This document shows, in pieces, positions 32,751 through 50,500 of a stretch of 64,000 nt of DNA. The position numbers were made by a program, and so were the translations under genes. How positions within the stretch are numbered: position 1 is the stretch's first letter; every line of letters starts with the position of its first letter. Origin of the DNA: Nitrososphaerota archaeon (GTDB lineage: Archaea > Thermoproteota > Nitrososphaeria_A > Caldarchaeales > Caldarchaeaceae); assembly GCA_041641305.1 (NCBI GenBank), contig JBEPYN010000001.1, forward strand, positions 544,001-608,000. The letters are read 5' to 3'. The notes under the pieces were generated by a model, which was not told the origin of the DNA, searched no databases, and saw nothing but the letters and a program-made list of their open reading frames with translations.

Positions 32751-33474
32751 GATAGTGTCCGGATAAGGGACTATATTTAAAGGCCGGTCTTCGATGATAA
32801 TCTGCGTGGATGCCGTCGCCCTGATCTCGAGCTGTTTCGTGCGCAACAAAAAAGCCGTGAGGTGAAGGTCCTCGCTGTCTTGGAGTACATGTTCCGCGGT
32901 AGCTGTAGGAGGGTCTCTAAAGTTCTGAGAAGTCTACTGTACACGATCTTGCTAGGAAGGTATCCTCAACGGTAGCAGTAGCCTCAGAGCCGAAGCGTAG
33001 GAGGTGCATAGCTGTTGATGAGACTAAGCTCAGGGTTAAGGGCGCTGTCGTCTACGTCTGGTCAGCTGTAGACGTCGATTCCGGCGAATTGCTGGCTCTA
33101 GAGGCTTCATACGGGAGGAGCTGCCTCAACGCGTTAACCTTCCTGAAAAAGGCCCTCAATATGTGCTTGAACAAACCTAAGGTTATAGTCGATAGGGGTC
33201 CATGGTATATCGTTGAGCATATGCTCAACAAAGTATCCGTGGGCGTTACAGAGGCTAGGGCTGGAATACGAGCACCAGAGGTTCGGAATGAGGAACAGGG
33301 TAGAGAGGTTCTTCAGATACCTAAAAGAGAGGACAGGATTATATCATAACAAATTGAGCGCGAAGAACTACGAACAAGGAATAAAGAACCTAAACTTGCT
33401 CCTAAATCTCTTCACGCTATACTACCAAACCGTTAGGAACGGGGGTGGGTAGAGGTGCTTATCCGGACACTATC
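32751..33474 (+). mobile_element. IS6-family insertion sequence (724 bp), transposase inactivated
   Basis: Perfect 17-bp TIRs GATAGTGTCCGGATAAG (32751-32767) and CTTATCCGGACACTATC (33458-33474); fragments IAVDETKL, YVWSAVDVDSGE, VDRGPWY, RNRVERFFRYLKERT split by frameshifts. Confidence 0.9.
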
Positions 33475-33806
33475 GCTTAAATGATTTAGAGACGGGTTTT
33501 ACACTTTCTTGGGGAAGGTCTTCGGCATTGTTTGTTCTTCTCTCTTAGGGTTTCATAATTACTCACCTTTACAAGGTGACGACTACGTAACATGACGCTA
33601 CCCCGGAATCATCACTGGCATACCGAGATGAAAAAAGGAAAGAAGGAGGGGTTGTATACACCACCTTCATCTCCTACGCCTTCGCCCAAGACTTTCCCCG
33701 CGGAACGCCCGACTGTCTTCCGCCCGCATGTCATCACCCTCTGGAGTATGGGGTTGACGCCGCAGGCGCCGGCTGGTTTCTGTCACCCTTCATAGGGAAA
33801 GGTTCA

Positions 33807-34580
33807 TTAGGAGCCCTCACCCAATATACCCTCGGCAGGGGCTGCCGGAGGGGTCTTGGGAAGGACTTCCTCCCCTTCCCCTCCAAGTGGCAGACCCTGA
33901 CACTGGGGGCCTTGGGTGAAGGCTTTCTCGACGGCTGTTGTAAGGTTGTCTAATGCCTGTTTGTATTCTCTGAGCTCTTTTCCGAGGTGGGTGTCGAGCA
34001 GGTGGAAACCGTGAAGTAGTAGCGCTGTTCTCGCCAGATTTTTCACCGCCACATGGTCTCTGTCATCTCGGTGTCCGCATTCTTCGCACTTCAGTCTATC
34101 CCATCTGCCTTTCTCATGCTTCATCAGTTTGTTGCATTTTGGACATAGACTGCTGGTGTAGTGGGGAGGCACTGTTACTAGCTTCCCCATCTTTTCGCAT
34201 GCTGTTGACAGTCGTCGTATAAGCTTGGCTATGGGCCAGCTGCTGATGATATGTGACTTTTCAGGGTCTTTTGCTTTTAGCCGCTGCTTTAGCTGACCGG
34301 CGTTTAGCCGCTCCAGAACCACTGCCTGTGTATTCGATGCAAGCCTCTTCACTAAACCGGCTGATTTGTTCACCCAGTCGTTGTCCAGGTTTCTAGCATA
34401 TCTCAGCCACGCATATGCTGGTCTTCCATGGATCCTTAGAGACCGCCTGTTAACCCTTCTGACAAACAATAGCTTGCCGACGTTGCGTGAGACACGTTTA
34501 TAACCCCTGAAGCGGATCAGCAGCCCAACCTCAACCTCGGCAACTATGATGTCTCTGACGTTTACGTCCACCACGACCAT
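33807..34580 (-). CDS. tnpB: Minimal TnpB-like nuclease (RuvC + Zn finger only, 257 aa)
   Basis: Starts at RuvC-I (MVVVDVN); VVLERL (RuvC-II); VPPHYTSSLCPKC...CEECG.RDDRDHVAVKNL (ZnF and RuvC-III). Confidence 0.85.
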   Translation of the reverse strand: MVVVDVNVRDIIVAEVEVGLLIRFRGYKRVSRNVGKLLFVRRVNRRSLRIHGRPAYAWLRYARNLDNDWVNKSAGLVKRLASNTQAVVLERLNAGQLKQRLKAKDPEKSHIISSWPIAKLIRRLSTACEKMGKLVTVPPHYTSSLCPKCNKLMKHEKGRWDRLKCEECGHRDDRDHVAVKNLARTALLLHGFHLLDTHLGKELREYKQALDNLTTAVEKAFTQGPQCQGLPLGGEGEEVLPKTPPAAPAEGILGEGS

Positions 34581-34584
34581 TTTT

Positions 34585-34934
34585 ATGGATCCCCGCAGCG
34601 CATAGCTCCGAAGCAGATCTGGAAAATATCCTCCCGCCCCGGCCCCCAACCCCGAAGAGCCGGAGCCGCCAAAGCGTTCTCCAGATCCTCCCATAGCTCT
34701 CCCCGCTCATCCCTAGACCCGGAGGCTGAGACCCCAGGCCTTTGGGATGAGACCTGGGGGCTTGGGTCTAGGGATCATCAAGCACGCTAACTGCCGCCGA
34801 ATGTGTAACATCTGCGTAGGGTCGACAACCCTACTTTCTGCGGGCAGCCGACTACCGCCCTTTTAACGGCCAGGCGACTACCGGCCCTATAGCCCAGCTA
34901 GGCGGGGCTTTCCACTCCTTCTCCTTACCTAGCC
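34585..34934 (-). ncRNA. Putative structured ncRNA or leader upstream of the minimal TnpB
   Basis: Series of stems with G-U pairs valid on the minus strand, a cUUCGg tetraloop, three phased hairpins, and a TATA-like TTATTATA about 25 nt upstream. Confidence 0.55.
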
Positions 34935-35027
34935 GTTTTCAACTACATTGTCCCGATATAATAACTTAACTTCCCACTTTCAGATACCTCTTAACTTATT
35001 TGAGGCTACCCTACTATTCACTGTAGT

Positions 35028-36302
35028 ATGCTCCTTAGACGGGTGTCCTTAGATAAGAAGAGACTCCAGGTCAGCATCTCAGGCAAAGTTTTCAATGTGT
35101 GGGGTAGGGAGGACGAGGGTTATGTCCTGAAAGGTGGTCTAAACCTGCTTGAGCACGTGCGGGGTATTAGGCTGTCTGACCTTCCTGAGCATTTGGTGGT
35201 AGAGATTGGTCCTAGGTTATCGGAGAAGTTTGGACTACAAAGAAGATTGAATTTCTCGGCAAGTCGGAAGGCTTTCAAAGTATCCTATCTGCTAACTGCT
35301 TCACGGGAAACTCTGATAGATGTTGAAGAGTATGCGTCAGAGATTGCTCGCAAGGCTGAGGAACATGGATTCAGCTGTCAAACCAGCAAGACGGAAGAAG
35401 AGACCCACATTGAGGCTAGTTACCGGCTGGGCGGAGGAGAGGAGATAGGGTATATTGTGGAGCTTTTCGAGGATGCATTAGCGTCTGCAGAGAGGTCGAT
35501 TGAGCAGAAAGAAAAGAGTATGCGTCAAAAGCTGGAGTACTGGATAGGAAATGTGGAACGGCTTGATGGCCGCATTCTCTCAAAACTGAACGGCTTAGAA
35601 GGCGTGGCTAAATGGATTATCCATCCGCTCACCAGTAAAGAGATAGCGTTCATACTCTTCGGCATCAAGCCTGAGTCGTTTAATCTGGGAGCCAAGCTGT
35701 CTTATGCATTGCTTCAAAGATTCGGGGTCTGGGATGGAGAGACAATAGATAGGCTTAAGGCCTTAGGCATAATCGCATACATGGAAGATAATTCAAGGCT
35801 CTTCTGCACGTTCACAGGATGGCGGGTCAAAAAGCTCCTCGAACAAATGATCTTCTTGGAACCTAAAAGCTTCACCTCATCCACAGCCAGCGGCTACGAC
35901 CCAATCTCCCTCCTCCACTATATCGGGAGGAACTTCCCATCACTGGCAATATCCAAAAGCAGGAGATTCAGAGGAAACAAAGGCGGAGCATTCAGATACG
36001 CCGAAAAAATGCTGAAACAGCTAACCTTCACACATATAGCAGCCCTAGCCGGAATCTATTGGCGGCTTCCCATACCCAAGCAGGTATTAGACGAAACCCT
36101 CAGCCAGCTGGTCAGCCTAGGCTTCATAAGCCACAACAGAAAAATCAAACCCTTCGCCAAATGGATAATAAGCCTGCTAAACGGCTACATCAGAAAAACC
36201 AAACTAGCCACAAACCCAAACCAAAAACAAACCCAGACAACACTGTTCAACTGGAACTGCCTACAAGAAACATTCATAAAACGAATATCTGAAAAACGGT
36301 AA
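35028..36302 (+). CDS. Hypothetical protein (424 aa) in the island
   Basis: Long ORF with ATG, divergent from the TnpB locus; no motif recognised. Confidence 0.7.
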   Translation: MLLRRVSLDKKRLQVSISGKVFNVWGREDEGYVLKGGLNLLEHVRGIRLSDLPEHLVVEIGPRLSEKFGLQRRLNFSASRKAFKVSYLLTASRETLIDVEEYASEIARKAEEHGFSCQTSKTEEETHIEASYRLGGGEEIGYIVELFEDALASAERSIEQKEKSMRQKLEYWIGNVERLDGRILSKLNGLEGVAKWIIHPLTSKEIAFILFGIKPESFNLGAKLSYALLQRFGVWDGETIDRLKALGIIAYMEDNSRLFCTFTGWRVKKLLEQMIFLEPKSFTSSTASGYDPISLLHYIGRNFPSLAISKSRRFRGNKGGAFRYAEKMLKQLTFTHIAALAGIYWRLPIPKQVLDETLSQLVSLGFISHNRKIKPFAKWIISLLNGYIRKTKLATNPNQKQTQTTLFNWNCLQETFIKRISEKR

Positions 36303-36337: not shown

Positions 36338-36461
36338 TCCCGCGGGGCGGATTTGAACCGCCGACCACCCGGTTTCCATGTTGCCTGGCGGGCTGATCTT
36401 CGGCTCAGCCACTTGGCTGACCGCTACAGCCGGGCGCTCTACCAGGCTGAGCTACCGCGGG
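36338..36461 (-). tRNA. tRNA-Tyr (GTA) with a 50-nt intron at 37/38
   Basis: CCCGCGG acceptor; CCCGG-CTGTAG[intron]A-CCGGG; T arm GGCGG-TTCAAAT-CCGCC; bulge-helix junction CUGU/AUGG with AAA bulge. Confidence 0.95.
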
Positions 36462-47503: not shown

Positions 47504-50500
47504 CTTTCAACCCCCTCTCACGGGACCGCATGTTTTCCGCCGTCCGTGAAGGACAGCTAGAGATAGCCCACTTTCAATTCCCTCTCGCGGGATCAGATAC
47601 GTGGCAGGTTTAGGGTCTTTGGCGAGAGTCTAAACATAGGCGCTTTCAATTCCCTCTTGCGGGATCAGGACGAGTATATCGTCGAGCTCTTGGCTCTTCT
47701 CGACGCTTACTTCTACTTTCAATTCCCTCTTGCGGGATCAGACACCGCTGTGGCGGGTAGGTCGAAACGTAATCTGGATGAAGTTTGTCTCCTTTCAATT
47801 CCCTCTTGCGGGATCAGTGGGGTGGTCGTTTATGACCACCTCAACGACGACAAAGACGAACTTTCAATTCCCTCTTGCGGGATCAGCTGTTGAAGTCATT
47901 AGCCGAAGCATAATCAAAAACGTGATTATTACTTTCAATTCCCTCTTGCGGGATCAGATCTCTGCAGCTGACATAGATAAGAGATTTGTAGGCGGGGTAA
48001 CTTTCAATTCCCTCTTGCGGGATCAGTCTGATGTCTAAGTCCTGAAGATTAAGGCGGTATAGGCTTTCAATTCCCTCTTGCGGGATCAGAGATTAGCCGC
48101 TGAATATGCAGCCATGGTCTCCGCCCAGACTGGCTGGCAATATGTTTCTTTCAATTCCCTCTTGCGGGATCAGTTAGCCAGAGCTCATAGTCGGGGTCTG
48201 GCAGGGAAAAAGAGACAACACTTTCAATTCCCTCTTGCGGGATCAGATGATAATGGATGCGTGCTCGGCGTAGCTAAGGGATGCGAACCTTTCAATTCCC
48301 TCTTGCGGGATCAGGTAGCATCTCAACCAGCTCCCGGTGGTCATCGTCAGACATCGCTCGATACTTTCAATTCCCTCTTGCGGGATCAGGGACACCACTG
48401 CCTAGTGAAGATGCTGTGCGACGACTGCGGTAAAAGACTTTCAATTCCCTCTTACGGGATCAGTGAAATACAGGTGAACGTCGGCCCCCAGCTTGAGCAG
48501 ACCATATCTTTCAATTCCCTCTTACGGGATCAGGGTATATAACAATAGCACAGCCTCCATAACGGTTGACTTTCAATTCCCTCTTACGGGATCAGTGGTT
48601 TTCGAACGTTTCTGGATTACTCTGGCTCTGAACGGCGCCTGCTTTCAATTCCCTCTTACGGGATCAGTGTAGTAGCTGCAGTATGAGCTGCAGAAAGCCA
48701 TTTGGCAGGCCTTGTACTTTCAATTCCCTCTTACGGGATCAGACGTGTATCGCAAGCATTTCAGCCGACTGAATGAGGCCGACATACTGCTATCCGCAAT
48801 CTTTCAATTCCCTCTTACGGGATCAGATACATACAGCCACACGGATACAACAAGGTATTACTCGAGCTATCTTTCAATTCCCTCTTACGGGATCAGAAAA
48901 TCCAGCCTATCACCAGCCCCAAACAAAACGTTACCTGTGGCAGAAAAACTTTCAATTCCCTCTTACGGGATCAGTTTTCTTCAGCAGGCGAGGGCTGGGG
49001 CCTGGCTGGCAGGAGGCCTTTCAATTCCCTCTTACGGGATCAGCAGCGGGTTTTCGCTAGACCATGTGGAGCCATTATAGTATTGCTTTCAATTCCCTCT
49101 TACGGGATCAGAGAACCTTGTGAAAAACCACCATAGCAAGAAGCTGGTCAAGAGCTTTCAATTCCCTCTTACGGGATCAGACATCCATGTCAGTTATAAA
49201 GGCAGGCATCTCAGTTAATCTTTCAATTCCCTCTTACGGGATCAGCCGGCATGGCACCTGCACCGACACCATTTGAAAACCCAAACAACACTTTCAATTC
49301 CCTCTTACGGGATCAGATGCCTCTTAAATTTTATTACGTCGTTCATGGTGTGTGTACTTTCAATTCCCTCTTACGGGATCAGCTGTCCTATAATCCTCTT
49401 CAGCAGCTTGGATGCCAGGTCCATATCCTTTCAATTCCCTCTTACGGGATCAGTCAACCACATCCACCCTGACCATCCCCAACCTAATCTTTCAATTCCC
49501 TCTTACGGGATCAGTTAGTCTCTCTTTACAATTCCACCATTTTTCGGGGATGAAAAACTTTCAATTCCCTCTTACGGGATCAGAAATTGACGAAGAAAGT
49601 TCAGATACAGAAATAGATTATGAAGCTTTCAATTCCCTCTTACGGGATCAGTTTCTCGGAACTCCACGGTGTCTGCGTTGAATGCGTTGAGGAAAATACT
49701 TTCAATTCCCTCTTACGGGATCAGATGAGGGGGGGCGGGCTAGAGCCGCCGCCGACCCGGTGGGTCAAACTTTCAATTCCCTCTTACGGGATCAGATATG
49801 TGACCTGCCCCTTCTGCCTTGGAAACGGAAAACTAACCTTTCAATTCCCTCTTACGGGATCAGGCAAAAGAGTTTAGCTCCAGGCGGGGGGATGTGCTGT
49901 GGAGCTTTCAATTCCCTCTTACGGGATCAGATGCTAAGGTGCGACGTAATAGCGTGGTTACGTGTCGGAGGTTTTTCTTTCAATTCCCTCTTACGGGATC
50001 AGCGGATATACGATTTGGGGGCCGAATCATTACACGCGTGCTTTCAATTCCCTCTTACGGGATCAGTCACTACTTTTGGTTTGGCGTTCATGGGCGTGGA
50101 TACCACTTTCAATTCCCTCTTACGGGATCAGTTGGTTTTGGTTTGCTTTTGCATGCGGTTCCGGGGATTCCCTTTCAATTCCCTCTTACGGGATCAGGAT
50201 AATTCTTGGGGCCTCGCAGGGCGTGAGTGGGAGCTTTGGCTTTCAATTCCCTCTTACGGGATCAGTGCGAGGAACCTCGGCTGGGACATCGGCTTCGCGA
50301 AAACATTCCTTTCAATTCCCTCTTACGGGATCAGTTTCGATAAAGTTTTTATCATCGAAGGCAGAGAGTTGGCCTTTCAATTCCCTCTTACGGGATCAGA
50401 GTATCACTTTCCGCGAAGATATCCACAATATGCCAAACCTCATTTGACTTTCAATTCCCTCTTACGGGATCAGGTGGCCCGCGGCCATGTCCACTACCAC

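Follow-up and report, generated by a model that had tools for sequence, protein, structure and literature searches.

A conserved hairpin array with a shared loop in the putative leader RNA of a Caldarchaeales nuclease cassette

In the coat-protein operator hairpins of phages MS2 and PP7, the stem sequence is free, the loop and a bulged nucleotide are fixed, and the element lies in the 5′ part of the mRNA that it restrains. Type III toxin-antitoxin systems carry near-identical tandem repeats and a terminator before the toxin gene, and the toxin is an endoribonuclease that processes the repeats, while CRISPR arrays consist of direct repeats of at least about 23 nt with unique spacers of similar length. 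REP and BIME elements are dispersed between genes in tens to hundreds of copies per genome; IS200/IS605 elements have subterminal hairpins at both ends, are mobilized by the Y1 (HUH) transposase TnpA, and are usually present in several copies. The ωRNA of TnpB comes from the 3′ end of tnpB, overlapping the gene, and has its guide 3′ of the scaffold, and in IscB the ωRNA substitutes for protein. IStrons are reported to have structured RNA on either side of the gene (PMC10690162).

The 64,000-nt stretch analyzed here, referred to as the window, comes from a Nitrososphaerota archaeon of the Caldarchaeaceae (assembly GCA_041641305.1, contig JBEPYN010000001.1, positions 544,001 to 608,000), and positions below are those of the window. 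On its minus strand, from 34886 to 34816, three 19-nt stem-loops follow one another at a 26-nt phase. Hairpin 1 (34886 to 34868) reads GGCCGG-TAGTCGC-CTGGCC (as RNA, GGCCGG/UAGUCGC/CUGGCC), hairpin 2 (34860 to 34842) reads GGGCGG-TAGTCGG-CTGCCC (GGGCGG/UAGUCGG/CUGCCC), and hairpin 3 (34834 to 34816) reads GTAGGG-TTGTCGA-CCCTAC (GUAGGG/UUGUCGA/CCCUAC); the first two contain one G·U pair each, and all three loops have the form T(A/T)GTCGN. A sequence-only reading of this DNA had described three stem-loops in 26-nt phase with conserved loops and purine-rich 7-nt linkers. The sequence is as it stated, with the linkers GTTAAAA, GCAGAAA, and GCAGATG on the 3′ side of the respective units, and Tandem Repeats Finder reports a 26-nt period at 34834 to 34888. 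The array occupies the 333-bp gap that separates two divergent ORFs, P0001 (33807 to 34694, minus strand), which encodes a 295-amino-acid TnpB-like nuclease made up of RuvC and TNB domains only, and P0002 (35028 to 36302, plus strand), which encodes a 424-amino-acid orphan protein, and it lies 120 to 190 nt upstream of the nuclease start codon.

The triplet geometry is not rare and by itself is no proof of function: when G·U pairs are allowed, the genome contains five phased triplets with 6-bp stems and 7-nt loops, against zero to three in ten dinucleotide shuffles. Among the five, the triplet at 34816 to 34886 alone has loops that all contain one and the same hexamer, an event for which our rough back-of-the-envelope estimate, which is not a tool output, gives a chance of about 5 × 10−7 per genome. 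We judge the array to be real because of this shared loop and the compensatory changes described below, rather than because of its geometry. The array region occurs once in the genome, which measures 1.66 Mb and is 99.3% complete. A recurrence of GTAGTCG at 33580 to 33586, which the sequence-only reading had pointed out, proved to be at chance level (237 occurrences of the heptamer in the genome versus about 209 expected); it also falls outside the conserved cassette, since a 95%-identical relative (L012) diverges right past the T-run at 33631. ATGTTAC, found at 34809 and 33591, was considered as a transposon boundary and rejected, because L012 has ATATTAG and its sequence diverges 3′ of the T-run. 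Farther out, a 75-nt stretch at 33400 to 33474 is 88% identical to C2:107642-107716, and fragments of ORFs at 33089 to 33452 recur near other cassettes (L019, L036, L024, and L057); these are probably the remnant of an IS.

For comparison, we drew on species genomes and on metagenomes, which together gave about 60 related loci. One to three hairpins are present at the equivalent position 5′ of every P0001 orthologue with enough flanking sequence, with different stems and a spacing of 24 to 26 nt. In a 10-sequence MAFFT alignment (A3), hairpins 1, 2, and 3 are 100%, 100%, and 93% paired, with 8 compensatory pairs, compared to 32 to 51% pairing in controls with slid 3′ partners. A covariance model derived from A3 was used to align 17 lineages (A6), in which paired cells make up 96.9% of the total and both partners have changed in 19 of 26 pairs (slid controls, 34 to 48%); fitting to the model favors structure, and the MAFFT alignment agrees. 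Helix by helix, hairpin 1 is fully paired in the 17 leaders as in the 10, and hairpin 2 is 99% paired in the larger set; compensatory pairs number 2 to 4 in hairpin 1 and 3 to 5 in each of hairpins 2 and 3. Hairpins 1 and 2 contain G·U pairs, and one G·U pair in the helix upstream of the array is kept in 9 of 10 sequences of A3. Because these would be C·A mismatches on the opposite strand, the sense strand is the folding strand.

About 50 Caldarchaeales loci match the covariance model, each of them once, and in every case the match is on the sense strand of the nuclease gene and 5′ of it. These loci answer the sequence-only reading's call for a search in related genomes, the number of units varying from one to three, and they bear out the proposal that selection acts on structure plus loop, since the stems covary and the loop is kept. 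Across the order, 7 of 75 genomes match, with one copy each. In the window's own genome, the array site is the single significant match; a second, weaker one, at C2:408091-408197 (E 0.36), was set aside, as tblastn found no cassette genes around it. Other loop-bearing hairpins in this genome number 41 versus about 26 expected by our own estimate, which is about the chance rate, and the best of them (C2:408134) likewise has no cassette genes by tblastn. Homologues are named as Aigarchaeota or Nitrososphaerota, with the nearest locus in a metagenome-assembled genome of “Ca. Caldarchaeum subterraneum.” The two-gene cassette to which the leader belongs is restricted to Caldarchaeales, archaea of hot springs, where it is patchily distributed in differing contexts and often abuts tRNA genes.

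The 7-nt loops follow the consensus Y-A-R-U-C-G-N in eight lineages, with U at position 4 in 20 of 20 loops and G at position 6 in 19 of 20. Position 1 can always pair with position 6, including as U-A in UCCUCAU; the unit, judged from these loop sequences, is probably a 7-bp stem with an ARUC-type tetraloop and a bulged 3′ base. Loops evolve in concert within a locus: their identity is 5.25 of 7 positions within loci and 3.97 of 7 between lineages, a difference reached by none of 20,000 permutations. Wolframiiraptor-type loci, for example, have UAAUCGN three times, another clade has GCUCGA three times, and another has CAGUYGA or UCGUCGG. Some lineages carry aberrant loops (e.g., CCGUUGA, AGUAG, and UUUGAC), and others have just one or two hairpins. 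No consistent reverse complement of the loops recurs anywhere in the cassettes, which makes a protein reader more likely than an RNA kissing partner.

Read in the sense of the nuclease gene, all lineages share one order of elements: a CTGAAAGTGG box, a TATA-like box, about 25 nt farther on a helix with a purine-rich loop (PuL), the hairpin array, a variable spacer, and a long hairpin with the start context. In the window, the CTGAAAGTGG box (also called the TGAAAGTG box; 34983 to 34974, minus strand) is just 5′ of the TATA-like element TTATTATAT (34964 to 34956), so that the two span 34956 to 34983. No other DNA motif in the intergenic region is as well conserved as this box across all lineages, including those with a LAGLIDADG nuclease discussed below, and the box is sometimes duplicated (GAAAGTGAAAGTG in L089). 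Going by general knowledge of archaeal TATA promoters, box and TATA-like element would form the promoter/operator of the leader transcript, the start of which is placed from the TATA-like box only; the CTGAAAGTGG box is also a candidate operator for P0002.

The helix that follows (34892 to 34935, minus strand) would fold into a pseudoknot of two stems around PuL (34927 to 34909). Stem a, formed by CGGCUAGG (34935 to 34928) and CCUAGCUG (34902 to 34895), is 95 to 99% paired, with 3 to 5 compensatory pairs and a conserved G·U pair. Stem b pairs GCC (34908 to 34906) with GGC (34894 to 34892); it is apparent by eye in the L015, L017, and L032 groups and is 63% paired in the MAFFT alignment, so the closing of the leader helix into a pseudoknot is tentative. 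The long hairpin, CCCUAGACCC ... GGGUCUAGGG (34711 to 34773, minus strand), is kept in L012, L013, L022, and L023 and lies just 5′ of the start-codon context GGGAGAGCYAUG, which is common to LAGLIDADG-type loci. No hypervariable stretch of the kind expected of a guide-like spacer was found between close relatives; the leaders of the window and L012 are about 96% identical, and their differences are scattered.

Metatranscriptome contigs from three studies, representing a relative about 96% identical, cover parts of 33632 to 34914. A 968-nt contig, X1, spans 33969 to 34914 and thereby joins the ORF to the complete array and to some of the pseudoknot. As these contigs are assembled, carry no strand or 5′-end information, and may include DNA, joint transcription of leader and ORF is supported, not proven. 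RNA contigs are absent at 33514 to 33627 and above 34938, and such contigs cannot demonstrate absence. X1 departs from the window at 34914/34915, inside PuL, and its 22 further letters match nothing in the genome or the loci. Separately, the X2 metatranscriptome contains short contigs at 34426 to 34596, in the 5′ part of the P0001 ORF, with a word depth of about 7,000 to 30,000 versus about 1,500 in the rest of the gene; a stable fragment of RNA could account for this, as could sequence that other organisms have in common with this one.

The only Pfam match of P0001 is to the Cas12f1-like TNB domain (PF07282, 1.5e−13), and the NCBIfam profile guided_TnpB aligns, below its cutoff, over profile positions 265 to 388 only, the C-terminal third. 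The residues D43 (the RuvC-I aspartate), E128, and D213 and the CCCC zinc finger C184/C187/C203/C206 are invariant in 16 homologues. An AF2 model (core pLDDT, >90; residues 1 to 24 disordered) matches the RuvC and TNB cores of Cas12g, Cas12f, and TnpB in Foldseek searches (E, 5e−7 to 1e−4). P0001 belongs to the TnpB/Cas12 lineage, with a RuvC fold and a D-E-D triad split by the zinc-finger TNB domain; because model and profile matches cover the RuvC and TNB core only, it lacks the N-terminal WED and REC domains of TnpB and Cas12 proteins. P0001 is the sole TNB-domain gene in the genome, and no relative of it was found on viral contigs.

Overlapping the end of the P0001 ORF and extending beyond it is an ωRNA-like 3′ RNA of about 300 nt (33631 to 33926, minus strand). 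Nucleotide conservation here persists through changes of reading frame, apparent “protein” conservation such as LMNLSPM turns up in different frames, and RNAalifold yields 64 pairs, 23 of them compensatory. These alignments point to an ωRNA-like scaffold for the RuvC-only TnpB. The RNA ends in a pyrimidine tail (PyT; 33653 to 33637), 3′ of which is the T-run (33636 to 33631). PyT is complementary to PuL in a lineage-specific manner, over 13 of 13 nt in the L017 group, 10 to 13 nt in the L015 group, 9 to 10 nt in the L032 group, and 8 nt in the window; exact-match lengths were used because RNAduplex energies are uninformative, all leaders being purine-rich. Short pyrimidine tails are also visible by eye behind LAGLIDADG ORFs. 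We read PuL and PyT as a putative 5′-3′ RNA pairing, which could serve mRNA stabilization or autoregulation and, in the TnpB type, might act as a self-directed guide. Short inverted repeats would be an alternative reading of the two.

The nuclease behind the leader is not always a TnpB relative. The covariance model matched two genomes with a LAGLIDADG_3 endonuclease downstream instead, and P0002 relatives led to three more LAGLIDADG-type cassettes with the same box, pseudoknot, and two hairpins (loop pairs UUAUCGU/UAAUCGU, CAAUCGA/CAAUAGA, and UCCUCGU/UCCUCAU). The LAGLIDADG_3 genes stand behind the leader and beside P0002 homologues in L081 (3261 to 4334), L082 (1681 to 2895, minus strand), L089 (1661 to 2908, minus strand), L086, and L088. 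A sister mini-TnpB clade (41 to 42% identity; G003 and G011:C14), in contrast, keeps the 3′ RNA signature with neither P0002 nor the leader, and the leader is absent from the mini-TnpB loci L008 and L009. (At L009:1300-2484 and L009:2492-3229, both on the minus strand, a mini-TnpB gene stands behind a codirectional 245-amino-acid ORF with an HTH-like N terminus and a hydrophobic tail.) Because of this double dissociation, we assign the hairpins to a module of P0002 and leader and not to a TnpB guide RNA. The suggested linkage of the array to RuvC-only TnpB thus stands insofar as the leader precedes P0001 orthologues and falls insofar as the same leader precedes LAGLIDADG genes and is missing from the sister clade; the constant partner of the leader is the divergent winged-helix gene P0002, not TnpB. 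In a P0002 tree, LAGLIDADG-type cassettes are interspersed among TnpB-type cassettes, which takes at least two changes, a reading that is tentative because the branches are long. Within a cassette type, one nuclease can apparently be swapped for another. The loops group by P0002 relatedness and not by the kind of nuclease; the LAGLIDADG-type locus L086 has TAATCGT, as do its sister Wolframiiraptor TnpB-type loci, and this covariation of loop and P0002 is inseparable from shared ancestry.

P0002 homologues adjoin the leader in nearly all loci, and the other flanking genes vary. The family (400 to 460 amino acids) is tiny, with 28 representatives in a set of 1.84 billion proteins; P0002 itself matches nothing in Pfam or NCBIfam, and a word-based homologue search returned a near-identical homologue only. 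The AF2 model of P0002 (pLDDT 90) has an N-terminal α/β domain with similarity to the ACT and YbjN folds, one long helix, and a pair of winged-helix domains. Foldseek found nothing in the PDB at an E value of ≤1e−3, a fold search (VIA-wide) gave weak matches only (Z 6 to 8 to α/β subdomains and MarR-like folds, with the MarR-like winged helix at about 6), and ESM Atlas searches by fold and by features gave nothing informative. Few residues are invariant (E162, S368, and several G, F, P, and W), a wing motif, GFIS..N.K.RP.G, is conserved, and in our own reading of the alignment none of the invariant residues forms a recognized catalytic motif. As the sole constant protein of the cassette, with two winged helices and no recognized catalytic motif, P0002 is the most likely candidate for the predicted hairpin binder. 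It could equally be a DNA-binding regulator of the TGAAAGTG box, in which case another factor would bind the hairpins. A 124-nt Rfam tRNA match (36338 to 36461, minus strand), missed by ARAGORN and probably intron-containing, lies directly against the 3′ end of P0002. In the downstream flanks of several other lineages (L013, L018, L042, L088, and L089), sequences that look tRNA-like by eye abut the nuclease end of the cassette, which suggests tRNA-linked insertion.

We propose, as a reading to which we give even chances, that the hairpins are iterated RNA docking sites in a structured leader through which a cassette-specific factor, most likely P0002, gates expression of the nuclease. Transcription of the leader would start at a promoter within the 333-bp intergenic region and run toward the nuclease gene, and each 6-bp stem of free sequence, 24 to 26 nt from the next, would present the same Y-A-R-U-C-G-N loop to a sequence-specific RNA-binding factor that evolves with the cassette. 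Cooperative binding may then gate how well the mRNA of the potentially toxic nuclease is translated or how stable it is, much as happens at the operator hairpins of phage coat proteins, and the leader, as a module of a two-gene cassette, would drive interchangeable nucleases, either the RuvC-plus-TNB-only TnpB relative or a LAGLIDADG enzyme. The array resembles the MS2 and PP7 operators in its free stem, its fixed loop and predicted bulge, and its place toward the 5′ end of an mRNA encoding a product that has to be restrained. It differs in that there are three phased copies, in an archaeon, with an unrelated loop (YARUCGN) and a winged-helix protein instead of a coat protein as the candidate binder.

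Alternatively, the hairpins might be part of the guide-RNA scaffold of the RuvC-only TnpB, with the leader replacing WED and REC and joining the 3′ scaffold through PuL-PyT. The locus has much in common with the TnpB/OMEGA systems of IS200/IS605 and IS607 elements, namely, a RuvC-plus-TNB nuclease with a structured RNA overlapping its 3′ end, and with IStrons, as they are reported, in that structured RNA flanks the gene on both sides. The absence of WED and REC from P0001, the large conserved RNAs on both flanks, and the lineage-specific complementarity of 3′ tail and leader loop all fit such a scaffold. Nevertheless, we consider it unlikely: the same leader and hairpins precede LAGLIDADG genes, which need no guide RNA, the sister mini-TnpB clade has the 3′ scaffold without a leader, and pyrimidine tails behind LAGLIDADG ORFs make the 5′-3′ pairing not specific to TnpB. 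The array moreover lies upstream of the start codon with its own putative promoter, a separate 3′ scaffold holds the position of the ωRNA, and, unlike TnpB/OMEGA elements and IStrons, the locus has a protein without WED and REC, no TnpA, and a single copy. Rfam showed no group I intron signal, even at an E value of ≤10.

A somewhat more doubtful possibility is that the units act as double-stranded DNA, each being an imperfect palindromic operator to which P0002 or another winged-helix regulator binds as a dimer. Each unit is indeed a 6+7+6 inverted repeat, and P0002, with its two MarR-like winged helices, is transcribed divergently from the same intergenic region. However, the arms differ between units and the asymmetric center is kept, which is the reverse of the selection expected from a dimeric DNA reader; pairing of the arms is upheld by compensatory changes and by G·U pairs that would be mismatches on the other strand; and the TGAAAGTG box upstream is a better operator candidate.

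We rate no higher the idea of a type III toxin-antitoxin-like or processing array, in which pieces of about 26 nt would neutralize or load a protein. As in ToxIN-like systems, a tandem RNA array, here a phased one, stands immediately 5′ of a gene for a potentially toxic nuclease. The cassette is patchily distributed, and RNA depth is very uneven. Yet it is structure and loop, rather than sequence, that the units share, the stems being different; there is no T-run terminator between array and ORF, which one RNA contig bridges; the array is common to two unrelated nuclease folds, RuvC and LAGLIDADG, both of the DNase type; and in some lineages it is down to one or two units. A CRISPR array is likewise a poor description of 19-nt units with 7-nt linkers and differing stems. 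Elsewhere in the window, at 50041 to 50197, is a tandem repeat with a 65-nt period, the unit of which begins with CTTTCAATTCCCTCTTACGGGA..., that resembles the terminus of a CRISPR array.

Hairpins that form in the single-stranded DNA of a mobile element (IS200/IS605-type ends, the REP-like elements suggested by the sequence-only reading, or a replication origin) are the most improbable of these readings, for despite the short GC-rich hairpins with conserved unpaired bases, the adjacent TnpB relative, and the patchy cassette in varied, often tRNA-abutting contexts, the array is at one site in a 99.3%-complete genome and present once per genome in relatives, it is internal to the cassette between two conserved genes rather than at a conservation boundary and has no matching hairpins at the other end, the genome has no match to the Y1 transposase family PF01797 and neither a RAYT nor a TnpA, G·U pairs and RNA contigs point to RNA, and no relative of P0001 was found on viral contigs.

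Docking sites in a leader RNA remain our preferred reading of the hairpins, in line with the iterated protein-binding site that was one option of the sequence-only reading. At the Rfam gathering score, the window matches two tRNAs only, and nothing credible appears at an E value of ≤10 over 33450 to 35050. The literature that we searched contains no report linking TnpB with Caldarchaeales and none describing natural RuvC-only TnpB genes or a similar leader. The leader may thus be a previously undescribed structured regulatory leader RNA with iterated predicted protein sites, and the cassette as a whole may be more novel still. More tentatively, and as a possibility that we hold to be somewhat improbable, the locus would represent a new archaeal cassette in which an orphan, sensor-like winged-helix protein and a dedicated leader RNA, with a pseudoknot, iterated loop-specific hairpins, and 5′-3′ end pairing, control interchangeable homing-type nucleases. 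One of these would be the smallest natural enzyme of the TnpB lineage, reduced to RuvC and TNB, with its nucleic acid-holding domains replaced by RNA, and the whole would be a selfish or defense element that inserts next to tRNA genes.

The comparison defines a structured RNA that is conserved and has no counterpart in Rfam, and the loops that change in concert within a locus offer a testable code of RNA-protein recognition. One regulatory module serves two unrelated nuclease families. The locus also highlights TnpB relatives of 260 to 300 amino acids with RuvC and TNB only, in which the catalytic residues are kept along with about 300 nt of conserved 3′ RNA; such enzymes could be starting points for very compact thermostable editors. 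Together, these features bear on how little protein an RNA-guided nuclease needs and on how archaea restrain selfish nucleases.
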